A stretch of DNA of 64,000 nucleotides from Verrucomicrobiota bacterium. GTDB lineage: Bacteria; Verrucomicrobiota; Lentisphaeria; Oligosphaerales; Oligosphaeraceae. A program made the translations under genes and the position numbers. Shown here in pieces: positions 11,005 through 55,017 of this stretch. The stretch's first letter is position 1. Each line of letters starts with the position of its first letter. The stretch covers positions 533 through 64,532 of the forward strand of contig JAGVUR010000156.1 of the NCBI GenBank assembly GCA_019136135.1, in the 5' to 3' direction. The notes under the pieces were generated by a model that had not been told where the DNA came from, did no database searches, and was given only the letters and a program-made list of their open reading frames with translations.

Positions 11005-12210
11005 ATGATAGCCAAAAGGAATCTCCGAGACAAGATCAGCCCCGCTGCCGTCCAGGTGGCCACCAGGCTCGTGCAAAACGGGTTTGAGGCCTACGTGGTC
11101 GGCGGAGCTGTCCGAGACTTGCTCCTCGGATCCATTCCGAAAGACGTGGACATCACTACGAATGCGACCCCCGAACAGGTGAGGTCGGTCTTCGGACGGC
11201 GGCAATGCGTCGTCATCGGACGACGATTCAAGCTTGCGCAAGTCAGAATGGGGAATGAGACCTTCGAGGTCAGCACGTTCCGAAGAAAACCGTCGCACGA
11301 AGAAAGCAAAGGACGCGATGACGATGACGGAATGATGATTTGGAACGACAACGAGTACGGCACGCTGGAAGACGATGCCAGCAGGCGTGACTTCACGGTC
11401 AATTCGCTCTACTTGGACGTAGTCGGCAAGCAGGGTGTCATCGATATGACTGGAGGCCTTAAGGATTTGAAGGCCGGGATTGTTCGCGTCATCGGCAATC
11501 CCGAGGAGAGGTTCATTGAGGATCCGGTTCGAATGTTGCGCGCCCTCAAGCTGGTTGGGCTTCATGGCTTCAAGTTGCATCCCGCCACGGAGGCCGCATT
11601 GAAGGCGAACAAGGCGATGATTTCCATGTCCTCGCCAGCCCGGCTCTATGAGGAATTGCTGAAGATTCTGTTCACGGGGCGTTCTCTTGCGATTTTGACT
11701 GCCTTCCACAAGTACGGTTTTTTGACGTATTTCTGGCCTGACCTGGAAGAGATTTGGTCCAAGCAGGACGGGGTTTTGGTGCGTCGTCTTTTAAAGACCC
11801 GTGATGCCGAAGTCGCGACAGGCAACTACTCGCACTCCAGGGCCTTGGCTTTGGCGACCGTCTCGTTGCCTGTGGCTTTGAGGGCGTTGCGACCGATTAC
11901 GGAGGATGACGAGGACGCCATCCTGTTGGGCGATGGCGGCGCGGTTTGCCTCAGGGTGGTCCGGCAATTCTTCAGCAGCTTTGTCTTGCCGAGGCTCTAT
12001 GCCATTCGCGTCAAGGAAATTCTCCTGTTGATTCCCGCTTTGAGTTCCGAACTGGCACCAAGATTCTACAGGCATCGGGAATACAAGTACGGAAGACTGC
12101 TCCTGCAACTCCTCGTCAAAACCCTCGATTGGGATCCGGAAATCGCCAATCGCCTTCCGCCCCCGGAAATCGCCTCGAATATGAAGCGAAGAAGACGGCG
12201 AAAACACTGA
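11005..12210 (+). CDS. pcnB: poly(A) polymerase I (tRNA nucleotidyltransferase superfamily)
   Basis: YVVGGAVRDLLLG..PKDVDITT, plus VIGRRFKLAQV which fits the PAP-specific [LIV][LIV]G[RK][RK]F signature. The tail is basic (KRRRRRKH). Confidence 0.85.
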   Translation: MIAKRNLRDKISPAAVQVATRLVQNGFEAYVVGGAVRDLLLGSIPKDVDITTNATPEQVRSVFGRRQCVVIGRRFKLAQVRMGNETFEVSTFRRKPSHEESKGRDDDDGMMIWNDNEYGTLEDDASRRDFTVNSLYLDVVGKQGVIDMTGGLKDLKAGIVRVIGNPEERFIEDPVRMLRALKLVGLHGFKLHPATEAALKANKAMISMSSPARLYEELLKILFTGRSLAILTAFHKYGFLTYFWPDLEEIWSKQDGVLVRRLLKTRDAEVATGNYSHSRALALATVSLPVALRALRPITEDDEDAILLGDGGAVCLRVVRQFFSSFVLPRLYAIRVKEILLLIPALSSELAPRFYRHREYKYGRLLLQLLVKTLDWDPEIANRLPPPEIASNMKRRRRRKH

Positions 12211-12217
12211 TTCACTC

Positions 12218-12456
12218 TAAAAAAAGCAGTTGAAACTGGATTTAGTTCCTAATTGATTGATTTTCAAATGGTTATAAATTTTATTCCGTTAACCATGTTG
12301 CTGAATTGAAATGCGTCAGTCTTCTGTAGCGCCTTTACAAGGCGCCCCGGCATGGGGGCATCCTGTCCCCAGGCTTTTAGCCTGGGGTGAGGAACTTACC
12401 CAAGGACAGTGCCTTGTAAAGGCACTACAACCATAAGGCGTCAACTGCTTTTTTTA
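12218..12456. mobile_element. MITE-like non-autonomous element (copy E1)
   Basis: Perfect 16-bp TIRs: TAAAAAAAGCAGTTGA (12218-12233) and TCAACTGCTTTTTTTA (12441-12456). The 9-bp direct repeat GATTCACTC lies at 12209-12217 and 12457-12465. There is no ORF. Homologous copies start at 20134 and 38535. Confidence 0.8.
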
Positions 12457-12459
12457 GAT

Positions 12460-13218
12460 TCACTCTGTTTTCTTCATGTCGTTCCATGCCGCAAGATAGG
12501 GAATGCATGGCCAGACCGATTCCCGTCTGAGCAGCGACTCTTTTACGTTTCTTGCCTCTTCTGTTTTTCCGGCATATTCAAGATAGACTGCGATGCCGTA
12601 CATCGCGACAACGGCGTTCAAGTCATTCTTATCTTGTTCCGCTTGATCAAGTGCTTCATCCGCAGTCCTTTTTCCAAGGATAACCTCCACGGCAGATTGA
12701 TATGCCGTATGGTGTCCGACACTCATGTCGTCACGGTATGTTCCTATCAGCTTGTCTGGCAAGTTTCCGCGCATGCAGCATAGGGAATTCCAATAGAGGA
12801 TTGCAATTCCCATCTCATCTCCGCAGGGAAGAACCTTTGTAAAATTGCCTGACGCCGCTTCATAGTCTCTTTGCAGGTAGTGCCACACCCCCATTGGATA
12901 GGCGATTGTTTTTTCGTTGCCATTGAGAGAACGGCTCTTTGCGTATGCTTTTTTTGCTTCAGTGAAATGCCGTAATGTCAGATAGGCTCCGCCTAAGCGA
13001 ACGTACAGCATCGGATCATCGGCACGAATTATCTCCGCAGAATGATATGCATCGATCGCCTCGCGAAAACGGTATTGTCCTGAAAGCAGGTTTCCCAGCT
13101 TTACCCGGCTTTCGTAGTCATCCGATTCCCGAAGCCAGAACATTTCTTCCGTATCTTCACATAGGCATGGAGCATTTCCGAGCTGGCTATCGATAGAAGC
13201 GTATCTCATCTCCTGCAT
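12460..13218 (-). CDS. TPR-like repeat protein, last gene of the lar operon
   Basis: Helical-repeat composition (YRFREAIDAYHSA..., FTEAKKAYAKS..., YEAASGNFTKV...). Its start lies 2 nt after the larC stop. Confidence 0.6.
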   Translation of the reverse strand: MQEMRYASIDSQLGNAPCLCEDTEEMFWLRESDDYESRVKLGNLLSGQYRFREAIDAYHSAEIIRADDPMLYVRLGGAYLTLRHFTEAKKAYAKSRSLNGNEKTIAYPMGVWHYLQRDYEAASGNFTKVLPCGDEMGIAILYWNSLCCMRGNLPDKLIGTYRDDMSVGHHTAYQSAVEVILGKRTADEALDQAEQDKNDLNAVVAMYGIAVYLEYAGKTEEARNVKESLLRRESVWPCIPYLAAWNDMKKTE

Positions 13219-13220
13219 GG

Positions 13221-14483
13221 CTACTTCGCCTGCTTGCCGATGCGTTCCACCACCTCGGCAAGGCTGATCTTCTGTTCTCGCGCAATGCGGGCAAGGCTAT
13301 CAAATTCGTATTTTTCCCTTGTCACACCATATCCGACAGATACCTTTTTACGTACTTCTCCATATTCTGTCGCCACGGTTTCGATTGAACGGGCAAGGGT
13401 ATATCGGCGGCTAATATTTTCACGCACTCCAAGTGTTGTCGTATGCTTGAAGATCAACCGGATCATTTGGTCCTTGTCCTTTTCGTGGCACATCACTGCA
13501 AGCAGAATGCCTGGGCGTGATTTCTTCATCTGGGCAGGAACGGCATAGACTTCCAAAGCCCCTGCCGCAAAAAACTGTTCCTCTGCGAACCCTATCGCTT
13601 CTGCCGTCATGTCATCGAGATTGCAGAGAAGCTCGGAAATCATGTCGCCTGAATCATCTGTTTCTCCAAGCAATGCCCGGACACAGTTTGCGGCGGTAAA
13701 ATCCTTTTTCCCCATGCCGTAGCCGATTGCTGTCGTTCTCATTACCGGCATATCTCCAAACCTTGTCGCAAAGTGCTTCAATAGAGCCGCACCGGTAGGG
13801 GTACACAGTTCGCTCTTGATTCCGCCTCCATAAATTGGAATGCCTCGCAGGATATAGGCGGTTGCAGGAGCAGGGACAGGCAGGATTCCATGGGCGCATT
13901 TTACATGGCCGCTGCCTACATGTATCGGAGAAACGACAACTTGTTCAGGAGATAAGCGATCCATCAGCATGCAAACGGCAGTTATATCTGCAACGGCATC
14001 CATCATCCCAACTTCATGGAAATGAATTTCCGTAACAGGCACACCGTGGGCATCGCTTTCCGCTTCCGCAATCAGCGAATAGACGGCAAGAATATCCGCT
14101 TTTACCTTTCCGGATATCGGCAGCTTTTCAATAATATGTTCGATATCGTGCATGCTATTGTGATGGTGCGTATGCTCTCCGGCATGGGAATGGTCGTGGT
14201 CGTGGGAATGACTGTGCCCATGCTCATGGTCATGACTGTGCCCATGCTCATGGTCATGGGAGTGCATTTCCTCTGTTTCTTCTTCGCCATGAACCTTTAC
14301 CGTGATTTGCGTCCCCTGGATTCCGCACTTTGTGGCTGCTTTACTGGAGATGGTGACTCCGGGAATGCCAAGACTGTTCAGTTCATCAAGAAATTCCTCC
14401 TTGTTCGGAAGAAGTTCAATCAAGGCCGCAGTCAGCATATCGCCCGCCGCGCCCATGCCGCAGTCCAGATATAACGTTTTCAT
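13221..14483 (-). CDS. larC: nickel-pincer cofactor biosynthesis protein LarC (nickel insertion, DUF111)
   Basis: MKTLYLDCGMGAAGDMLTAALIEL...; a His-rich tract HSHDHEHGHSHDHEHGHSHSHDHDHSH; adjacent to larB and larE. Confidence 0.9.
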   Translation of the reverse strand: MKTLYLDCGMGAAGDMLTAALIELLPNKEEFLDELNSLGIPGVTISSKAATKCGIQGTQITVKVHGEEETEEMHSHDHEHGHSHDHEHGHSHSHDHDHSHAGEHTHHHNSMHDIEHIIEKLPISGKVKADILAVYSLIAEAESDAHGVPVTEIHFHEVGMMDAVADITAVCMLMDRLSPEQVVVSPIHVGSGHVKCAHGILPVPAPATAYILRGIPIYGGGIKSELCTPTGAALLKHFATRFGDMPVMRTTAIGYGMGKKDFTAANCVRALLGETDDSGDMISELLCNLDDMTAEAIGFAEEQFFAAGALEVYAVPAQMKKSRPGILLAVMCHEKDKDQMIRLIFKHTTTLGVRENISRRYTLARSIETVATEYGEVRKKVSVGYGVTREKYEFDSLARIAREQKISLAEVVERIGKQAK

Positions 14484-14484
14484 T

Positions 14485-15237
14485 TTATTTCGCCTCCATA
14501 TGATTGATCATGCTTGCCAGATATCCGGCACCGAAACCATTGTCGATATTCACCACGGATACTCCGCTGGCGCAGGAATTCAGCATGGATAAAAGAGCAG
14601 ACACCCCATTGAAGGATGCTCCATATCCGACGCTTGTAGGGACGGCAATCACGGGACAATCCACAAGCCCACCGATTACGCTGGCAAGTGCGCCCTCCAT
14701 TCCGGCTATGGCAATAATAACGCTTGCACTCATGAGTTGATCCAAATGAGCAAGCAGACGGTGCAACCCAGATACGCCGACATCATACAGGCGAACAACT
14801 TCGTTGCCATGGACTTCGGCGGTTAATGCGGCTTCTTCCGCCACTGGGATGTCGCTGGTGCCTCCAGTTGCCACAACAATCTTTCCAATTCCGTTGGCGC
14901 TTGGGATTGAACCGATGATTCCAACTTTGGCTTCCGCATGATAATCGATCTCATAGGCTGTTCCGACTTTTTTGGCTGCTTCCGGAGGCAGTCGTGTAAT
15001 CAGGATAGTCTTCTGTCCGCTAAGTTTCATTTTCTCTGCTATCCCGATAATCTGCTCCGCGGTTTTCCCGGCGCCATAGATGACTTCCGGAATGCCTTGG
15101 CGAGTGGCGCGATGCAGATCGATTTTAGCATAGCCGATATCCTCAAACGGCTTTTTTTTCAGAGCCAAAATAGCTTCGTTTACCGTTAAGTCTCCATCGC
15201 GTACAGCTTCCAAAATCGCTCTGATTTCCGTTTTCAT
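14485..15237 (-). CDS. larB: nickel-pincer cofactor biosynthesis protein LarB (PurE/AIR-carboxylase-like)
   Basis: VVATGGTSDIPVAEEA...IAIAGMEGALASVIGGLVDCPVIAVPTSVGYG. Confidence 0.9.
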   Translation of the reverse strand: MKTEIRAILEAVRDGDLTVNEAILALKKKPFEDIGYAKIDLHRATRQGIPEVIYGAGKTAEQIIGIAEKMKLSGQKTILITRLPPEAAKKVGTAYEIDYHAEAKVGIIGSIPSANGIGKIVVATGGTSDIPVAEEAALTAEVHGNEVVRLYDVGVSGLHRLLAHLDQLMSASVIIAIAGMEGALASVIGGLVDCPVIAVPTSVGYGASFNGVSALLSMLNSCASGVSVVNIDNGFGAGYLASMINHMEAK

Positions 15238-15980
15238 TCCCTCGTCTCCAAATCCAGCAAAACAGCCGAATAATACCGCTTCAATTCCGCAATGATGCTT
15301 TCCCGGTTTTCAATGACTTTTCCAATCTGTGCAGCAGGAACCTGTATTTTTGCGGCATTCCCCATCAGCCGAACCCGAAAATCATTCAATCCAAGAGAAG
15401 ACAGATAACTCTCCGCAGCTTCTGTCGCTTTCAACTTTTCCTCGGTGATCTGCTCTCCAACGGGAATCCGTGTGGCAAGGCAAGCATAGGCTGGCTTGGC
15501 CCAAGTAAATAGACCCGCTTCCTGTGAAAGCCGGCGAATCTCGGCTTTGGTCAAGCCACACAGCCTTAGCGGTGAAAGCACGGACAATTCATGGAGAGCC
15601 TTCATGCCGGGACGATCATCGACATCATCCGACGCATTTGTTCCATCAAGCAAAACTGCAAATCCATCTGCTTTGGCTTGTTCTTTAATGGTTTCAAAGA
15701 TTCGTTTCTTGCAGTAATAGCAGCGGTTGCTTGGGTTGGATGCAATTGTTTCGTCTGAAACAACATCCAAGTAGAGAGTTGTCATTTGCACGGCAAGTTC
15801 CTTGGCAATGCGTCGAGCATCATCTAATTCAAACTGCGGCTGAAAAGCTGATTTTACATAATAAGCCCGCACCTCTTTTGCATACTGCTTGGCAGCGTGC
15901 AAAAGGTAAGCCGAATCGACACCTCCGGAAAATGCGACTGCAACTCTGGGATGCTCTTTAAAAAAATCAATTAACTTCAT
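15234..15980 (-). CDS. larE: LarE ATP-dependent sulfur transferase (PP-loop ATPase)
   Basis: VAVAFSGGVDSAYLL (PP-loop), CYYCK and ACLATRIP Cys motifs. It overlaps larB by ATGA. Confidence 0.88.
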   Translation of the reverse strand: MKLIDFFKEHPRVAVAFSGGVDSAYLLHAAKQYAKEVRAYYVKSAFQPQFELDDARRIAKELAVQMTTLYLDVVSDETIASNPSNRCYYCKKRIFETIKEQAKADGFAVLLDGTNASDDVDDRPGMKALHELSVLSPLRLCGLTKAEIRRLSQEAGLFTWAKPAYACLATRIPVGEQITEEKLKATEAAESYLSSLGLNDFRVRLMGNAAKIQVPAAQIGKVIENRESIIAELKRYYSAVLLDLETRE

Positions 15981-15990
15981 GCGACTCCCA

Positions 15991-16027
15991 AGACAAAAGG
16001 CGGCTCTGCGTGAAGTACAGAGCCGCC
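15991..16027 (-). terminator. intrinsic terminator/attenuator between the membrane-protein pair and larE
   Basis: Perfect 10-bp stem GGCGGCTCTG (15999-16008) / CAGAGCCGCC (16018-16027). On the minus strand it is followed by TTTTGTCT. Confidence 0.6.
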
Positions 16028-16040
16028 AATCTGCCGCTGG

Positions 16041-16355
16041 TTATTTTTTCACGAACAGGGCGGCCTTGACAACACCCTTCGGATCCTTTACAAGCAGAAT
16101 AACGAGCCAGATGATCAGACCCAGGGCTACAACGGACAATCCAAGATAGAAATCATTGAGCATATCGACTGGAGCAGGGGTGAAGTATTCAGCCCCAAGT
16201 TCACCATACTCAATGATTGCATCGATAAACCACATGAGGGAAGCGCCCCAAAACATCCAGCAGAGATGACCGACCTTCATCTCGCTTTTGGGTGCGCCCC
16301 TATACCAGATGATCGTGCAGATGATTGCCGCAAATACCGTCGTTAATAGAGTCAT
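16041..16355 (-). CDS. small integral membrane protein (about 3 TM), unknown family
   Basis: Hydrophobic segments LLTTVFAAIICTIIW, HLCWMFWGASLMWFIDAII and LGLSVVALGLIIWLVILLV. It shares a WG(A/G)S...(F/W)..(H/A)...(G/Y)(E) motif with the upstream neighbour. Confidence 0.6.
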   Translation of the reverse strand: MTLLTTVFAAIICTIIWYRGAPKSEMKVGHLCWMFWGASLMWFIDAIIEYGELGAEYFTPAPVDMLNDFYLGLSVVALGLIIWLVILLVKDPKGVVKAALFVKK

Positions 16356-16357
16356 TC

Positions 16358-16771
16358 TTATACGCCCTCCTCAGCAGGTTTGGGAGCGCGAAGCGCTCTT
16401 TTTTCAATAACGGAGGCGACGGCAAGCATGCCAACCCACACAGCCGTGATGAGAACTGACATCATCACACCAGCGCTTCTCATTTCTGCGAGCATTTCAG
16501 CGGTTTCACCGCTTTTGATCGCCGTCAGGAACGGGAAGAACGGTACAATTTCGCCATGCCACAGATGCTCGAAAGCAAGCAGGGCGGAGCCGCCCCAGAG
16601 CAATTTATTCAGCCAGCCGAGCTTGGCGGAAAACGGGATCTTTGTTGCTTCTTCAACAGAGCCATCGGAAAGGTAAATCTTGACAGACTCTTCCTTTTCC
16701 TTGGATTTCATAACCTTTGCAGCGACAGAAGTGATGACTGCTTGAGCAGCCGGGACAAGAAAACATGCCAT
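16358..16771 (-). CDS. small integral membrane protein, paralog-like to 16041-16355
   Basis: The ATG at 16771 is preceded by GGAGGG with 8-nt spacing. MACFLVPAAQAVITSVAAKV..., LLWGGSALLAFEHLWHGEIVPFFPF and GVMMSVLITAVWVGMLAVASVI are hydrophobic segments. Confidence 0.6.
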   Translation of the reverse strand: MACFLVPAAQAVITSVAAKVMKSKEKEESVKIYLSDGSVEEATKIPFSAKLGWLNKLLWGGSALLAFEHLWHGEIVPFFPFLTAIKSGETAEMLAEMRSAGVMMSVLITAVWVGMLAVASVIEKRALRAPKPAEEGV

Positions 16772-16941
16772 AATTGTGTACCCTCCAAAATTATTCAGGT
16801 GGCGGCATGCAAAAAAGGCATACCATTTCTCTTCTGAGAAATCGCATGCCTTCCTGGCACACATGGCCACCAGTGTTATCGTTAAACTTTCGTCTGTATT
16901 TTTGGACACTTCAGCGTCATTGTTCAGCTTCTTGCTGTAAC
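16772..16941 (-). promoter_or_regulatory. structured 5' leader with an internal intrinsic terminator (candidate riboswitch or attenuator)
   Basis: The minus-strand hairpin GGCATGCGATTTCTC-AGAA-GAGAAATGGTATGCC followed by TTTTTT lies at plus coordinates 16811-16851. A 12-codon leader ORF MTLKCPKIQTKV is at 16920-16882. The leader sits between a consensus promoter and the RBS. Confidence 0.5.
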
Positions 16942-16947
16942 AAATAT

Positions 16948-16976
16948 ATTATATCGCTTTTCTGTTAGGTCGTCAA
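16948..16976 (-). promoter_or_regulatory. sigma70-type promoter
   Basis: On the minus strand: TTGACG (16976-16971), a 17-nt spacer, then TATAAT (16953-16948). Confidence 0.6.
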
Positions 16977-17174
16977 ATTGGCTTGGACCAAAAAGCGGGC
17001 AATGCAGCTGGAAAATGAAATCTAGCTTCTTCATGCTTGATTGCTTCCATGGTCGGTGTAAATTCATCATATATGGGATGATGTGGATTCGAGCAACGGA
17101 AGGCCTTGATTTATGCGGGGATGTGGCAGGGTTCGTATTGGGTTGTCAGCAGATCTAATTCTTCTGGAGGAAGT

Positions 17175-20114: not shown

Positions 20115-20133
20115 AAACAGCTTGGTTTAAACC

Positions 20134-20539
20134 TAAAAAAGCAGTTGAAGCTGGATTCAGTTCCTAATTGACTGATTATCAAACAGTTAAAAATTTTGTT
20201 CGTTTCACCATGCTGGTGATTTTAAGTGCGTCTGTTGCGCCTTTACAAGGTGCCCGGCAAGGGGGCATCCTGTCCCCGGGCTGAAGCCCGGGGTTAAGCA
20301 TGGTCATGCGCCTACGGCGCAAAGTCTTAGGCGCGGACCAGCCGTCCGCAATCCACGCGGGTGGGACACGGACCAGACACGGACGATAATTCGGACTTGT
20401 CAGAAGGATTTACATAATGCATTGCACCGTAGGTGCTTAACTATGCTTAACCCCAGACTTTAGTCTGGGGAGAGAAAACCACCCGAAGACCGTGCCTTGT
20501 AAAGGCATTACAATCATAAGGTGTTAACTGCTTTTTTTA
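20134..20539. mobile_element. MITE-like element (copy E2) carrying a nested palindromic insertion
   Basis: Ends are TAAAAAAGCAGTTGA (20134-20148) and TTAACTGCTTTTTTTA (20524-20539). It is flanked by GGTTTAAACC at 20124-20133 and 20540-20549. The left roughly 160 bp is colinear with E1. The inner element 20294-20450 has arms of about 27 bp starting TTAAGCAT. Confidence 0.75.
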
Positions 20540-20549
20540 GGTTTAAACC

Positions 20550-20599
20550 TAAAAAAAGCAATTGACGCCATGGCAAAATGACTGTCATGGCGTTTTTTT
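20550..20599. terminator. bidirectional intrinsic terminator
   Basis: An A-run (8 A, 20550-20557), then stem ACGCCATG (20565-20572) / CATGGCGT (20586-20593), then T7 (20593-20599). Confidence 0.7.
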
Positions 20600-20652
20600 G
20601 GGGGGGCGGAATGGGGCGGACGAATTTGCCCTGAACAGGACAAGACGGTTTC

Positions 20653-20681
20653 AGGTACGGGCACCCGGGGTGCTCGTACTC
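20653..20681 (+). repeat. REP-like palindrome GTACGGGCACC-N-GGTGCTCGTAC (copy 1)
   Basis: AGGTACGGGCACCCGGGGTGCTCGTACTC. Near-identical copies are at 47530-47558 and 47648-47676, a perfect version at 34904-34942, and an inverted version at 38827-38855. Confidence 0.8.
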
Positions 20682-20725
20682 AAACGGTGTCGCCGGTCAA
20701 GGGGCTGAAAATGGCGCATTTCTGG

Positions 20726-23308
20726 TCAGACAGGTCGGACAGGTCGGACAGGTCGGACAGGTCGGACAGGTCGGACAGGTCGGACAGGTCGGACAGGTCG
20801 GACAGGTCGGACAGGTCGGACAGGTTGTTTCTGTGCGAGGCTTGATTCGATCGCATTTCGAACCCGGTCTGTGATCGTGCGATAGTCGTCTTCTTCGAGA
20901 GGAATAATTGGCTCGAGGAAGGTGACAGTGATCTCCTGGCGAAGCTTGGGGAAGAGCTTTTTCCTTGGGAGTGCGTCGTAGGCGCCGTCGATTGCGACGG
21001 GTACGATCGGTACGTTGAGTTCCTTTGACAGGATAGCGAATGTTCTCTTGAATGATCCTAGGGAGCCGTCGAGTGTTCGTGTCCCTTCAGGGAAGAGGAT
21101 GATCTTGTGTCCCTTTGCGAGTACGGATGCGAGTTTTTGAAGTGAGAGCTTGAGGTTGTCGTTGATGTCCATGACGATGACATTGTGTCGATCGGCGAAG
21201 GCTTTTCCGTACCAGCTTTTCATGTGGTCGGCTTTTGCGTAGAAGAAGGTGTTTTTTAGGTTGTTGCCACGCAGGAATGCTGCGAGCAGCGGCGCGTCAA
21301 GGAAGCTTTGGTGGTTTGGCGCGATGATGCATGGTCCTTCTGGAATGTTCTCGGTTCCCGTTCCCTTGAACTTGAAGGCGATGTGGAGGAAGCATCTTGA
21401 AATCGCGTTGATCAGGTTATGTGCGAACCAACTTCTCGGAAGTTTGAGCTTGACGTTTTCCTTGAGGACCTGGGACCATTTGAAGCTCAGGTTTTCCCGG
21501 GCGACTCCTTTTTGCGATATCGACGTGATGGCGAGGGCAAGCTTTTCGGGGGTTGGGTTGTCAGCAATCGTTTGGTCTTGGATTTCAATGTTAAAGGTTT
21601 CGTTGATGAAAACCGCGAGCGCGACTTTCCCGAGCGAGTCCATGCCGAGGTCGATTTCCAGGTGGTCGTCGGGATGGAGGGCTACCTTCAGTGTGCTTTC
21701 CAGGTATTGCTTGATCGCCTTGTATTCTTGCGAATCCGGGTCTTCCTTTGGGGGATGGATTCGATGCTGCTTGATTGACGCAAGCAGTTCGAGTTCGTAT
21801 CTCTTGAGTTTTCCGATTCTGGTCCTCGGGAGCGGTTCGGACAGCAGGGAGAATTTTAGGATCCTGTTGTAGCTTGACGACTGTTCATTGTAGGGTGCGA
21901 TGACCTTTTGGCGGATGGTTTCCTCGATGTTGAGGATGCCTTGGCCTTCGAGTTTCTTGACATTGGGCAGGATCAAGGCATGCAAGGCATCCTCGGTGCC
22001 TATGACACCGACCTCGGCGATGATGTCGCCTGCCAGGTTCATCAGCTTTTGCTCGACGGTTTCGGGGTTGATGTTCTTTCCGTTGGGGAGGACGATGATT
22101 TCCTTTTTTCGACCTGTGATGAAGATGTAGTCATCATCGTCCACATAGCCCAGGTCTCCGGTATGGAGCCAGCCATCCTTCATGATTTCGCTTGTTTCCT
22201 CGGGCTTGTTGTAGTATCCGATCATCACATTGTCGCCGCGAACCGTGATTTCTCCGTCTTGGATGCGTACTTCGCAACCTGGGAGGAGCTGTCCCGCCGA
22301 GCCGTGCCTGGGCTTTCCGGGTCTTGTGAACGAGATCATCGGCGCTGTTTCGGTCATTCCGTAGCCGTTCAGGATCTCGAATCCGAGGGTTCTGAAGTCC
22401 AGGATTACTTGCTTGTCCAAGGCGGCGCCGCCACAAGGCATGTACCGGATCGAACCACCGAACTTGTTCTGGACAGACTTGAAGACTATCCTGGAAAAGG
22501 CAAGAGAATTGACTTTGGAGCAGAGCCAGAAGAGGCTTTTGGCAATGGAGCTTTGCCGGATCTTGCCCATGATGCCGTCCCGTAGAAGGGTATAGAGCCT
22601 GGGGACGCCGATGATCATCGTGATCTGGTACTGGGCGAGCGTGCCCAGGATGTCGGCTGCCGCCATTGAAGGCGCGAATACTGCTGTTGCCCCGATGGTC
22701 AAAGGCATGACGAGGGTGCCCTGGAGCGGGAGGACGTGATGGAGCGGGAGGAGGACCAGGAGCCTGTCGTCAGGTTGGTAGATCGGGACTTTTTTCGAGA
22801 CGGAGACGAGATTGGCGTAAAGGTTCTTGAAGGTTAGCATCACGCCTTTTGGGCTGCCGGTAGTTCCCGAGGTGTAGATGATCAGTGCGGTATCGTTGTC
22901 GGGATTGTCGGCGAACTCGTTGTCTAGGTCAGGCGATTCGGGAATGACTTCATCGGCATTGACCATGCAACTTGGCTTCCAGCTGGTGGCTTCCAGCGCC
23001 TTTTTGAGGTTTTGCTCCGTGGTGTTTGTGTAGAGGATTGCGGTGGGTTTCGCATCGTCCAGGATATAGGCGACTTCATCCGGGCTGGAGAGCGCGTCAA
23101 TGGGAATTGCGATCGCATGGGCGTGCCAGGTGCCGTAGAGAGCATACACCCATTCGAGACGGTTTTCAGCGAATATGGCGACCCTTTCCCCAGGCTGGCA
23201 GCGGAGTATCCGGGAGTAGCGGATGGCATGGGCGATGAGGGTATGGTAGTCGATACGCTGATCCTTGTAGATCAAGGCGATTTTGGAAGAAGGTTGGAGG
23301 AATCGCAT
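20726..23308 (-). CDS. fusion protein: acyl-CoA/acyl-ACP synthetase (AMP-binding) + carrier-protein domain + PlsC-type acyltransferase, with a C-terminal (PVR)10 tail
   Basis: IIYTSGTTGSPKGV (AMP-binding P-loop), GWLHTGDLG, DLGMDSLG (Ppant Ser motif), APNHQSFLDAP (HX4D acyltransferase), FPEGTRT, then PVRPVR...PV. Confidence 0.85.
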   Translation of the reverse strand: MRFLQPSSKIALIYKDQRIDYHTLIAHAIRYSRILRCQPGERVAIFAENRLEWVYALYGTWHAHAIAIPIDALSSPDEVAYILDDAKPTAILYTNTTEQNLKKALEATSWKPSCMVNADEVIPESPDLDNEFADNPDNDTALIIYTSGTTGSPKGVMLTFKNLYANLVSVSKKVPIYQPDDRLLVLLPLHHVLPLQGTLVMPLTIGATAVFAPSMAAADILGTLAQYQITMIIGVPRLYTLLRDGIMGKIRQSSIAKSLFWLCSKVNSLAFSRIVFKSVQNKFGGSIRYMPCGGAALDKQVILDFRTLGFEILNGYGMTETAPMISFTRPGKPRHGSAGQLLPGCEVRIQDGEITVRGDNVMIGYYNKPEETSEIMKDGWLHTGDLGYVDDDDYIFITGRKKEIIVLPNGKNINPETVEQKLMNLAGDIIAEVGVIGTEDALHALILPNVKKLEGQGILNIEETIRQKVIAPYNEQSSSYNRILKFSLLSEPLPRTRIGKLKRYELELLASIKQHRIHPPKEDPDSQEYKAIKQYLESTLKVALHPDDHLEIDLGMDSLGKVALAVFINETFNIEIQDQTIADNPTPEKLALAITSISQKGVARENLSFKWSQVLKENVKLKLPRSWFAHNLINAISRCFLHIAFKFKGTGTENIPEGPCIIAPNHQSFLDAPLLAAFLRGNNLKNTFFYAKADHMKSWYGKAFADRHNVIVMDINDNLKLSLQKLASVLAKGHKIILFPEGTRTLDGSLGSFKRTFAILSKELNVPIVPVAIDGAYDALPRKKLFPKLRQEITVTFLEPIIPLEEDDYRTITDRVRNAIESSLAQKQPVRPVRPVRPVRPVRPVRPVRPVRPVRPVRPV
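20729..20824. repeat. 9-bp tandem repeat (GACAGGTCG), about 10.7 units
   Basis: Read directly: perfect in-frame units that encode (PVR)10PV on the minus strand and end at the TGA stop (20726-20728). Confidence 0.95.
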
Positions 23309-34903: not shown

Positions 34904-34942
34904 ATTTTGAGTACGGGCACCCCTGGTGCCCGTACTCAAAAT
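34904..34942. repeat. perfect REP-type hairpin (18-bp stem, 3-nt loop) followed by an orphan MITE right end
   Basis: ATTTTGAGTACGGGCACC-CCT-GGTGCCCGTACTCAAAAT. CGCCAGCTGTTTTTTTA at 34953-34969 is the reverse complement of the left end seen at 47491 (one extra T). Confidence 0.85.
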
Positions 34943-38465: not shown

Positions 38466-38534
38466 TGTTGAAGAGTGGAATTGCTTCGACAGCGAATCCC
38501 GTCGAAGCAACTCAACATCTTCACGGGGTTGTCC

Positions 38535-38884
38535 TAAAAAAAGAAGCTGACGCCAGCTCTTTATTCCTAATGCATTGAAAAAGTGGCTTTCAAGCTACCG
38601 TTTTGGGACACTAAATGCAGTGGCGCAATGATTGAAATGCGTCAAACCTCTGTAGCGCCTTTACAAGGCGCCCGGCTTGGTGGGCATCCACCCCCAGGCT
38701 AAAGTCTGGGGTTAAGCATGGTCAGGCGCTTACGGCGCCAATGCGTTATGTGGTTCCGTCAGGCCTCTCCGACCTGCCCGACCAGGAATGCGCCTGTTTT
38801 AGCCATTTGACTGCTGACAGCCCCTTGAGTACGAGCACTCTGGGTGACCGTACTCAGGTAGCCATGGCGCAACTGCTTTTTTTA
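38535..38884. mobile_element. MITE-like element (copy E3), diverged; its right half is replaced by an inverted REP hairpin
   Basis: Ends are TAAAAAAAGAAGCTGA (38535-38550) and GCAACTGCTTTTTTTA (38869-38884). It shares the modules TGTAGCGCCTTTACAAGGCGCCC, GGGCATCC, the CCCCAGG...CTGGGG hairpin and TTAAGCATGGTCAGGCGCTTACGGCGCC with E1/E2. I could not find a flanking duplication. Confidence 0.65.
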
Positions 38885-38895
38885 GCTTCACAGGT

Positions 38896-47387: not shown

Positions 47388-47414
47388 GTTAACTTTTTCG
47401 GGAATTGCCCTCAC

Positions 47415-47490
47415 ACCATTTCTTGCAGATTTAAAGCGCGACTTCAAATCTGCAAGAGTGGTGCCGGGATAATCACAGTAGCAATAAACC
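47415..47490. repeat. 76-bp direct repeat, left copy (island boundary) with a 16-bp-stem hairpin
   Basis: ACCATTTCTTGCAGATTTAAAGCGCGACTTCAAATCTGCAAGAGTGGTGCCGGGATAATCACAGTAGCAATAAACC. It aligns with 50523-50598. Confidence 0.85.
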
Positions 47491-47690
47491 TAAAAAACAG
47501 CTGGCGTCCATCAGTCAATCGGTTAAGCTAGGTACGGGCACCCGGGGTGCTCGTACTCAGGCGGTTTCGCCGCTAAAGCGGCGAAACTGGGGCGTTCCCG
47601 GTCGGACGGGCGAGCAAATTTGCCCTGTTTCAAAGCAAGACGGGTTTAGGTACGGGCACCCAGGGTGCTCGTACTCAGGCGGTTTTGGAA
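47491..47690. repeat. composite REP/MITE block: MITE left end, two REP hairpins and one 10-bp-stem hairpin
   Basis: TAAAAAACAGCTGGCG at 47491; REP copies at 47530-47558 and 47648-47676; GTTTCGCCGC-TAAA-GCGGCGAAAC at 47564-47587. AATTTGCCCTG and CAAGACGG(T/G)TT(T/C)AGGTACGGG are shared with 20600-20660. Confidence 0.8.
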
Positions 47691-50476: not shown

Positions 50477-50522
50477 GTCGTGCCTCCGTCATTGTGACTG
50501 GCTATAAGATAAACCGTTTCTT

Positions 50523-50598
50523 GCAAATTTAAAGTACGACTTCAAATCTGCAAGAAAAGGTGGCAAAATAGTCACAGTAGCAATAAAGACGGAGATTG
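50523..50598. repeat. 76-bp direct repeat, right copy (island boundary)
   Basis: ACCGTTTCTTGCAAATTTAAAGTACGACTTCAAATCTGCAAGAAAAGGTGGCAAAATAGTCACAGTAGCAATAAAG. Confidence 0.85.
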
Positions 50599-54358: not shown

Positions 54359-54513
54359 TTGCAGTTGCTTTGAGGTCAATGGAATTATGTACAAATCAAC
54401 TTATTAATATAATGCAATTTCCATTTCATTCTAGTTTCCTACGTCTTTCGCTTTTTCGTTGATACGGGGACACTGGGAAAGTCACAGTGTTGTTTCTGTG
54501 GCATGCCACTTAT

Positions 54514-54581
54514 GAATGCTGAATGCTGAATGCTGAATGCTGAATGCTGAATGCGGAATGCGGAATGCGGAATGCGGAATC
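54514..54581. repeat. biphasic heptanucleotide tandem repeat (GAATGCT)5(GAATGCG)4
   Basis: Read directly. It lies in the intergenic region between divergent yggS and the DUF721 gene. Confidence 0.95.
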
Positions 54582-55017
54582 ATAGGTTTCAGTCCCAAGA
54601 CCTCCAGGTTCCTAAAACCCAAGGTCAAGTCCCATGGTCCCAGTCCCATTTCCCAGTCCTATAAGTCACATGCGTCTTATTTGTCCCATTTGTCTCAGTC
54701 CCAAACCCTCCAATGTCGTATCCAGGGGGCATGTCACATCCCTTTTGAGTACGAAAGTGTGCAAAAATCAACTTTTAGTCGCAGCTTGGGGAACTTTGGG
54801 TTTGGAGTGGTTTTCTTATTGTCGTGGCGAATTCATATGAGAAATAGGTCTTGTATGTTGAATTGTAGAGTGTTGTGGCTATGAAAATATGACAATGTGG
54901 ATTATGTTATACTTTTTATTTTTCATGGCTTTTTGAAGAGTCGATTGCAAAAGAGTCTAGTTGATTCCGGCATAGAAGCGGGAGTTGAGGACGAATTGGA
55001 GTGAACGAGGTAGCTTG

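Follow-up and report, generated by a model that had tools for sequence, protein, structure and literature searches.

We have analyzed a stretch of 64,000 nucleotides from a Verrucomicrobiota bacterium (GCA_019136135.1, contig JAGVUR010000156.1, forward-strand positions 533 to 64,532), which is referred to here as the window and is numbered from its first letter. Three intergenic repeats, designated E1, E2 and E3, are present in the window, and this report is concerned principally with E2 (20132-20541), which is followed after 6 nt by a truncated relative. Our observations, described below, indicate that E2 is very probably a canonical, full-length member (~410 bp) of a family of miniature inverted-repeat transposable elements (MITEs; non-autonomous, with terminal inverted repeats, TIRs) that has spread in an uncultured Lentisphaeria clade (UBA1407 and relatives), that its 157-bp centre is intrinsic to the element, and that E1 and 2 other short copies (L010 and L014; loci outside the window carry L numbers) are independent deletion products of the longer form. 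The first-pass annotation of this DNA had already taken E2 for a second, independently inserted MITE-like copy, and this part of it is borne out by the TIRs, the target duplication, the multi-copy family and a locus that is empty in relatives. The features of E2 to which we refer are as follows.

20126-20131, no strand: left copy of the target-site duplication, TTTAAA; the same 6-mer is at 20542-20547.
20132-20148, plus strand: left TIR, CCTAAAAAAGCAGTTGA, which lacks one A of the family consensus CCTAAAAAAAGCAGTTGA.
20149-20236, plus strand: A/T-rich left arm of ~88 nt with no right-arm counterpart, common to the 776-bp sister element (family alignments; element in L036).
20237-20253, no strand: palindrome H1, GCGCCTT-TAC-AAGGTGC, which mirrors H7; 100% of its cells are paired in 15 copies.
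20274-20321, plus strand: Acido-Lenti-1-like two-hairpin module, composed of H2 (20274-20293), a 14-nt linker, TTAAGCATGGTCAT, and H3, GCGCCTACGGCGC (20308-20320).
20294-20450, no strand: inner segment of 157 nt, with H4 (20333-20349) and a centre that varies; all long copies have it, and it never lies outside the outer arms.
20424-20470, minus strand: inverted partner module, composed of H5, GCACCGTAGGTGC (20424-20436), a linker, TTAACTATGCTTAA, and H6 (20451-20470); part of a 69-nt inverted repeat.
20492-20508, no strand: palindrome H7, GTGCCTT-GTA-AAGGCAT, which mirrors H1.
20524-20541, minus strand: right TIR, the family terminus, reading TTAACTGCTTTTTTTAGG on the plus strand.
20542-20547, no strand: right copy of the target-site duplication, TTTAAA, matching 20126-20131.

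The 18-nt TIR CCTAAAAAAAGCAGTTGA was found at both ends of E2 (17/18 positions at each) and in other complete copies, and the terminal 16-mer of E2 occurs 9 times in the window at 3 or fewer mismatches, against 0.64 occurrences expected. The coding capacity of the 410 bp is nil: there is no open reading frame (ORF) of at least 50 aa, and the longest ORFs, of 30-47 aa, are not conserved features.

E2 had been described as flanked by a 10-bp duplication. Identical 10-mers, GGTTTAAACC, are indeed present at 20124-20133 and 20540-20549, but only the central TTTAAA of each is target DNA. The left 10-mer is made up of GG from the left flank, TTTAAA, and CC from E2's own terminus, and the right 10-mer of GG from the right terminus of E2, TTTAAA, and the CC end of the adjacent element. 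We compared the flanks of 21 non-redundant complete copies, and observed that the dinucleotides immediately outside TAAAAAAAGCAG... were CC at 17 of the left ends and GG at 17 of the right ends, and that positions -9,-8 and +8,+9, which would have to match under a 9-bp duplication, were not GG or CC. From these distal positions, and from the conservation of the termini, it follows that the CC and GG belong to the element and that the terminal repeat is the 18-mer given above; a target duplication of 9 or 10 bp was rejected on the same grounds. The 5 nt beyond the CC or GG on each side conform to the consensus W-T-N-A-W. A perfect 5-nt direct repeat was present in 10 of 21 same-copy flank pairs, as compared with 18 of 420 cross-copy pairings (binomial p=5e-9), and same-copy flanks were far more alike than cross-copy flanks (permutation p=5e-5). 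Across the family, the target duplication is 5-6 nt and A/T-rich, and in E2 it is the 6-nt TTTAAA.

A genome scan that took one genome per species, and used a pattern from the conserved core that is unbiased for length, yielded 24 loci: 21 in the metagenome-assembled genome (MAG) Lentisphaeria bacterium UBA1407, 2 in another Lentisphaeria MAG, and 1 chance match in Dyadobacter. The window itself is ~93% identical to UBA1407 over 7.8 kb, and thus derives from a sister lineage. Metagenomes, scanned with a pattern from the central part of the 157-nt segment, gave 35 matches (31 true family loci and 4 chance matches in coding DNA), and 2 further non-coding copies came from a scan of viral contigs; a distant blastn search of a plasmid collection with E2 as query gave no match. 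Several family copies are situated at contig ends, as is usual for dispersed repeats. We called 26 flank-distinct complete copies, and excluded 2 as weak TIR calls. In all, the non-redundant complete copies that we found in MAGs and metagenomes of Lentisphaeria number at least 25. The size classes among complete copies from the genome scan were as follows.

Long form, ~403-415 bp when intact (317-522 bp if N-gapped, partly deleted and insertion-bearing copies are included): L002, L003, L004, L007, L008, L011, L012, L013, L018, L022, L024.
Short form, 234-238 bp: L010, L014.

With 11 long copies and 2 short ones in this length-unbiased sample, the long form is the majority, so that E2 represents the standard form and E1 (239 bp) the exception. 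Our literature search found no report of MITEs in Lentisphaerae; the E2 family is an undescribed family of MITEs, which as a kind of element are already known.

The history of the E2 locus could be read from 7 related assemblies (L025-L031), which were found through homologues of the upstream protein. In these, only 46-49 bp lie between the same 2 convergent genes; E2, the neighbouring fragment and a 9-nt repeat array described below are all missing. The empty locus shows that E2 is a lineage-specific insertion. The E1 insertion is common to sister lineages (L052, L069, L070). We envisage that E2 inserted in the lineage of the window, between the 2 convergent genes and directly against the terminus of an older truncated relative.

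E2 and E1 differ chiefly in their middle portions. As had been noted from the letters alone, E2 (20134-20539) and E1 (12218-12456) correspond colinearly at their two ends, and E2 carries in addition the segment 20294-20450, which runs for 157 nt from TTAAGC to GCTTAA. Our alignments gave 83% identity between 12220-12320 and 20135-20235 and 84% between 12376-12460 and 20459-20543. The ends of this segment form a 27-nt inverted repeat in which 22 of 27 positions are complementary, and 2 versions of a 20-nt hairpin flank it, CCCCGGGCTGAAGCCCGGGG at 20274-20293 and CCCCAGACTTTAGTCTGGGG at 20451-20470. From these observations the first-pass annotation had concluded that E2 looks like a MITE inside a MITE. 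On such a model, a short, E1-like MITE would be the ancestral form, and the long form a composite that arose when a second, smaller palindromic element with TTAAGCAT... termini entered its hairpin and caused that hairpin to be duplicated. Short copies with a single hairpin do exist (E1, L010, L014), and a real pile-up of the family in L033, where a related 776-bp-type (G-type) element ends against the middle of a family copy, might also be cited in its favour. We now regard such a nested origin as very improbable, and for present-day elements it is largely refuted, for the following reasons.

First, independent occurrences of the inner unit, which the annotation had proposed to look for, were not found: there were 0 solo units among the 31 true metagenome loci, all of which have their match to the inner-segment pattern in family context, and 0 among the 24 genome loci. 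Blast comparison of the 157-nt segment with all loci gave full-length matches within outer arms only. Second, the inner unit has no target duplication of its own. Its flanks are 20-nt palindromes that differ from each other, and a 20-nt duplication is at odds with the 5-nt duplication of the family. Moreover, the 2 flanking hairpins differ in the same manner (GGGCTGAAGCCC as against AGGCTTTAGCCT) in all 15 aligned long copies, which argues that they are not the products of a recent duplication. Third, the short copies do not all keep the same hairpin: E1 and L010 keep the right type and L014 the left type. Fourth, the 27-nt inverted repeat is part of a longer one, with 69-nt arms at 20261-20329 and 20415-20483 that are 74% complementary, and the left "terminus" of the presumed inner element, which is the linker plus H3, is contiguous with the core in variants that do not contain the rest of the segment (E3, L006, L015, L016). 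The inner segment is therefore the centre of the E2 palindrome, its "termini" are the inner halves of 2 inverted two-hairpin modules, and it is no separate mobile unit today.

The relationship of the short form to the long form was decided most directly at the E1 locus itself. The coordinates of E1 are:

12216-12458, plus strand: E1, a family member from which 178 bp (H2 and the inner segment) are deleted; the long form is present at the orthologous locus.

In 3 other assemblies, namely L052 (a metagenome contig), L069 (GCA_040768065.1) and L070 (GCA_012515425.1), the orthologous locus contains a 417-bp long form that shares both the GATTCACTC flanks of E1 and its diagnostic arm variants. E1 corresponds to that long form minus 178 bp, which were lost between the CCCC runs that start the 2 hairpins. 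The presence of the long form in 3 assemblies implies that E1 arose by internal deletion, and not the long form from the short. A fourth locus, L023, was set aside as evidence for a long form at the E1 site, since its contig ends in the repeat and the last ~100 nt are those of the L011 copy except for one base, so that it may be chimeric. The arms of each short copy are nearest to those of a different long copy (0.978, 0.914 and 0.867, as compared with 0.81-0.85 to the other short copies), from which it follows that E1, L010 and L014 are independent deletion derivatives. Further internal deletions with other end points were observed in L035/L043 (junction CCTAC), in L038/L044 and in L024. In essence, then, the inner segment was never found independently and E1 is a deletion derivative, an outcome that the first-pass annotation had itself named as contrary to nesting. 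The palindrome of the E2 family is deletion-prone. The 20-nt hairpins on either side of the centre are direct and inverted repeats of each other, and the centre would be lost by replication slippage or recombination between them. These orthologous loci show directly how a palindromic MITE gives rise to shorter size classes by internal deletion, and E1, E2 and E3, as 3 intergenic repeats of one MITE family, should not be annotated as genes or as nested elements.

In one Logan contig, L025, the sequence beyond E1 is arranged differently from the window. Comparison of L025 1490-1760 with window 12209-17030 showed that a block of ~4.8 kb after E1 is absent from L025, where ~260 nt of unrelated DNA are found instead, and that the left breakpoint in L025 lies inside the flanking repeat of E1 (ACTGATTCA|). 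The block contains genes for a TPR protein and for LarC-like, LarB-like and LarE-like proteins, together with 2 small ORFs.

Taken as a whole, the long form is a single long, imperfect palindrome, within which 7 short perfect palindromes (stems, 5-8 bp; loops, 3-5 nt) follow one another in symmetric order. H1 mirrors H7, the H2-linker-H3 module mirrors H6-linker-H5, and H4 is in the variable centre. For both strands, the whole of E2 is predicted to form a single hairpin (z = -9.3 and -9.4). Of the hairpin cells with letters on both sides, 97% are Watson-Crick pairs in 15 long copies, whereas arm-to-arm pairing is kept less well (88%) than the local palindromes. Compensatory changes were observed at 3 pairs (GCGCT/AGCGC to GCACC/GGTGC in H5, and G-C to A-T in H6), and only a few related copies show them. 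In the 7 hairpins, the cells that are not Watson-Crick pairs comprise 8 G·T and 7 A·C, a ratio which gives no sign of selection on one RNA strand. The left arm, which stands outside this symmetry, may be the remnant of a promoter or leader of a putative parent element; our scan of it for sigma-70 promoters gave no convincing match.

Searches of Rfam related the H2-H3 module to a known RNA motif. The whole window gave no matches at gathering thresholds, and at E<=5 the filters dropped the Acido-Lenti-1 match, leaving chance matches of the miRNA/snoRNA type alone. A sensitive search of the region gave one full-length match to RF01687 (Acido-Lenti-1), at 20274-20321 on the plus strand (22.9 bits as compared with a gathering score of 37; E 0.0025-0.0075), which spans exactly H2, the linker and H3. 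We also constructed a model of our own on the seed alignment that Weinberg et al. published in 2010 (PMC2864571, additional file 5). With this model and with filters off, the same positions were the best match in the 64-kb window (24.1 bits), and most other family copies that keep the module scored 20-29 bits. The inverted module, on the minus strand, gave two weak matches, neither of which spans it: 13.2 bits over 20443-20470, which takes in H6 and the beginning of the linker, and 6.3 bits over H5 alone (20424-20436). Genuine Acido-Lenti-1 motifs, on the other hand, were detected in the 776-bp sister elements of L033 and L036, at 44.3 and 42.6 bits with the seed-built model and 44.5 and 42.9 bits with Rfam's; a weaker tandem copy is located ~57 nt upstream of the genuine motif in the sister element. 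The genuine motifs are cargo of the sister element, and E2 carries 2 diverged, inverted copies. Since it scores below the Rfam threshold, the E2 module is not a member of the family, but by architecture and context it is a plausible relative. Like Acido-Lenti-1, it has an 8-bp stem with a UGAA-type tetraloop, a linker that starts with YUA, and a 5-bp stem with a U-N-C triloop; it is from the same phylum; and it is multi-copy and clustered, as are the seed members from the NZ_ABCK01 contigs, which we take to be Lentisphaera araneosa. It differs in the length of the linker (14 nt instead of 12), which begins with UUA rather than CUA, in its 3' base (A rather than U), in being embedded as an inverted pair within a mobile element, and in showing no strand bias of the RNA type.

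It might be argued from this likeness that the repeat is a gene for a structured non-coding RNA, of the Acido-Lenti-1 small-RNA type, with a promoter in the left arm and with the terminal repeats serving as a long-range closing stem and U-run, and that its copies arose by gene duplication or selection. The full-length match at 22.9-24.1 bits, the best in the window, is in accord with such an argument, as are the pairing of the hairpins, the compensatory changes in H5 and H6, and the grading of the motif by Weinberg et al. as a probable RNA (PMC2864571, Table 1). Yet the score is under the gathering threshold, the module occurs on both strands of one element, the hairpin mismatches have no strand bias, and no sigma-70-like promoter was found in the left arm; and the TIRs, the target duplications and the presence or absence of copies at orthologous loci all indicate transposition. 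We thus consider an RNA gene most unlikely as the explanation of the repeat, although a MITE can carry an RNA module, and in that sense the idea is compatible with our interpretation of E2 as a MITE.

The published seed itself has a related peculiarity. In the 69 unique sequences of the RF01687 seed, non-Watson-Crick pairs comprise 38 A·C and 8 G·U, concentrated at 2 pairs, a count in which the observations are not independent, many members being closely related copies from the NZ_ABCK01 contigs. On the opposite strand, the A·C pairs would read as G·U wobbles; the motif either has been annotated on the wrong strand or is free of selection at the RNA level. It is possible, and we put this forward as a tentative suggestion, that Acido-Lenti-1 is a repeated palindromic building block of Lentisphaeria TIR mobile elements, a module borne by MITEs that acts at the DNA level (for example, as a pair of hairpins bound by transposase or a host factor), and that its 2 degenerate, inverted copies in E2 cause the recurrent deletions. 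Acido-Lenti-1 has been without known function since 2010. Its association with mobile DNA suggests that at least part of this RNA family is a mobile-element component, which would bear on the interpretation of its covariation and of its distribution in multiple copies.

Several observations weigh against the interpretation of E2 as a transposed, intrinsically long MITE. About half of the copies do not have a clean target duplication. This could be explained by exchange of flanks between copies, as in L007/L008 and L042/L064, or by assembly chimeras. E1, with a 9-nt direct repeat (GATTCACTC) and TC...GA termini, fits the 5-nt model only imperfectly. At the E2 locus, the unduplicated TTTAAA could not be read in L025-L031, where the flanks are 89-92% identical to the window and the 46-49-bp spacer is too diverged to be aligned at the insertion point. 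In ~657 kb of related sequence we found no autonomous element with E2-family termini, and we infer both the transposase and its chemistry. The conservation of the hairpins (97% Watson-Crick, with 3 compensatory pairs) exceeds what would be expected from neutral decay, and hints at some function. Finally, a single ancient nesting event before the spread of the family could still underlie the long form.

The flanks of L007/L008 and L042/L064, from UBA1407 and metagenome contigs respectively, are exchanged reciprocally, such that a1..a2 and b1..b2 in one pair correspond to a1..b2 and b1..a2 in the other; this is due either to recombination of one copy with another or to chimeric assembly across the repeat.

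As to how the family is mobilized, the terminal repeats, the copy-specific duplications, the insertion polymorphism and the deletion derivatives were observed directly. A DDE-type transposase supplied in trans probably recognizes the 18-nt termini and, on inserting the element, would cut A/T-rich targets of the form W-T-N-A-W with a stagger of 5 nt (6 nt in E2). Examination of TIR pairs 0.6-4 kb apart in all loci disclosed no parent transposase element, and one candidate, in L009, proved to be a chance match inside a gene. A DDE_5 (IS701-like) insertion sequence (IS) is present in L016 (3190-5160) and L020 (1660-3540). It has termini of its own, CCTGGAGTTTGGCA, and a small ORF upstream; its transposase is complete in L020, with 459 aa, but carries a frameshift in L016. 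This element was rejected as the mobilizer, in that its termini are different and it has merely inserted into a family copy right after H3. No tRNA or tmRNA attachment site was found.

The DNA to the right of E2, and the mosaic E3, are related to the 776-bp sister element:

20548-20835, minus strand: truncated related element in inverted orientation, which aligns with ~170-290 nt at the right-hand side of the 776-bp G type (L036 1810-2585) and also with the right half of E3.
38533-38886, plus strand: E3, a mosaic relative composed of a variant left arm (as in L015), the family core with H2-linker-H3, and a G-type right module, with no target duplication.

The G element in L036 (1810-2585) is 776 bp long and non-coding, with perfect CCTAAAAAAAGCAGTTGA termini, a TTAAA duplication and the left arm of the MITE, and a second copy of this type is located in L033 (1-666, reverse orientation). 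The terminus of the truncated element, CCTAAAAAAAGCAATTGA (20548-20565), faces the right end of E2 across the 6-nt TTTAAA. Two termini that strictly abut in this manner were found in the one case of E2. The fragment shares its terminus, GCCATGGCG, a 33-nt palindrome and GTCCGACCTG repeats with the 776-bp element and the right half of E3, and contains a terminator-like hairpin (20564-20594), the 33-nt palindrome (20650-20682) and a 9-nt repeat array (20724-20825). It was this hairpin, with its T-run, that had been described as a minimal terminator directly downstream of E2. A terminator-like hairpin and T-run are present there, at 20564-20601, but they constitute the end of the truncated element together with a local hairpin-forming insertion, and not a minimal terminator as such. 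The associated suggestion, that the family derives from or targets bidirectional terminators, was not upheld: the A-run and hairpin belong to the terminus of the related element, and the gene contexts show no strong bias (7 convergent, 9 tandem and 3 divergent among 19 copies, in a crude ORF-based count).

In L033, at 640-720, the 776-bp-type element ends against ATAAT within the TGCATAATGCA palindrome at the centre of a MITE copy, right after whose GCTTAA a further MITE copy begins; the far side is beyond the stored locus, and nesting is unproven. Breakpoints at or just after H3 recur in E3, L006, L016 and L036/L062, such that H3 looks like a hot spot of rearrangement.

The right part of the 776-bp element natively has 2-3 copies of a 9-nt tandem repeat, GGTCGGACA, from which the array in the window, of 11.3 copies, is derived. 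This array provides the AMP-binding/acyltransferase protein encoded by the neighbouring ORF (20726-23308, minus strand) with the C-terminal sequence ...AQKQ(PVR)10PV, a 32-residue tail, such that this protein is 860 aa long in the window as compared with 829 aa in relatives, where it ends in ...AQQQQ. Elements related to E2 can thus reshape genes, the fragment beside E2 having supplied the (PVR)n tail of a neighbouring enzyme.

Two other repeats of the window may be recorded here. One is a further family of hairpin repeats (TCTTGCAGATTTAAAG..CTTCAAATCTGCAAGA), with 2 copies, at 47414-47457 and 50513-50562, both direct and inverted. The other, at 54513-54582, is a 7-nt tandem repeat (TGAATGC/GGAATGC); similar GAATG-rich repeats adjoin family copies in L016 and L033.

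In comparing the E2 family with known systems, we considered first the repetitive extragenic palindromes (REPs) and bacterial interspersed mosaic elements (BIMEs), which it resembles in being an intergenic mosaic of short GC-rich palindromes with modular reshuffling. E2 could accordingly be viewed as a mosaic of this type, spread by a REP-associated tyrosine transposase (RAYT) or by recombination rather than by a DDE transposase. Consistent with such a view are the string of short GC-rich palindromes in E2, the reshuffling of modules between element types (E3, L016, L036), and a separate family of 33-nt palindromes (GAGTACGGGCACC...GGTGCCCGTACTC) with 5 sites in the window (20650-20682, 34906-34938, 38824-38856, 47527-47559 and 47645-47677). 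Where their context is visible, however, these adjoin a CCTAAAAAAAGCAG-type terminus, and hence are part of a larger element and not free REPs. Unlike REP and BIME sequences, the E2 family has long TIRs and target duplications, its copies having defined 18-nt TIRs and 5-nt duplications, neither of which REP/RAYT systems are known to produce. No RAYT gene turned up, though no systematic search was made. In the aggregate, these considerations leave a REP-like origin with hardly any probability.

A second comparison concerns the source of the transposase. Members of the IS1380 family, such as IS1247 and ISEcp1, have direct repeats of 4-5 bp and ends beginning with CC. For IS1247, a 5-bp direct repeat is documented (PMC3281130, Table 2). 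The 5-nt duplication and CC termini of the E2 family fit this family, which we regard as a lead only: no transposase gene with E2-family termini was found, and the likeness is one of direct-repeat length and CC ends.

The family may further be compared with the MITEs of other bacteria, such as the Correia (NEMIS) elements in Neisseria, RUP in Streptococcus pneumoniae and the TIMEs derived from Tn3. As in those systems, the members of the E2 family are small (0.24-0.42 kb), non-coding, intergenic and multi-copy, with TIRs and a short target duplication; the whole element can fold as a long hairpin; and full-length and internally deleted classes coexist, as with the ~155-bp and ~105-bp forms of the Correia elements. 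The E2 family differs from these known MITEs in having no known parent IS, in its termini (CCTAAAAAAAGCAGTTGA), in a 5-nt W-T-N-A-W duplication instead of the TA of Correia, in its uncultured Lentisphaeria host, and in an interior that consists of a symmetric string of 7 perfect palindromes.

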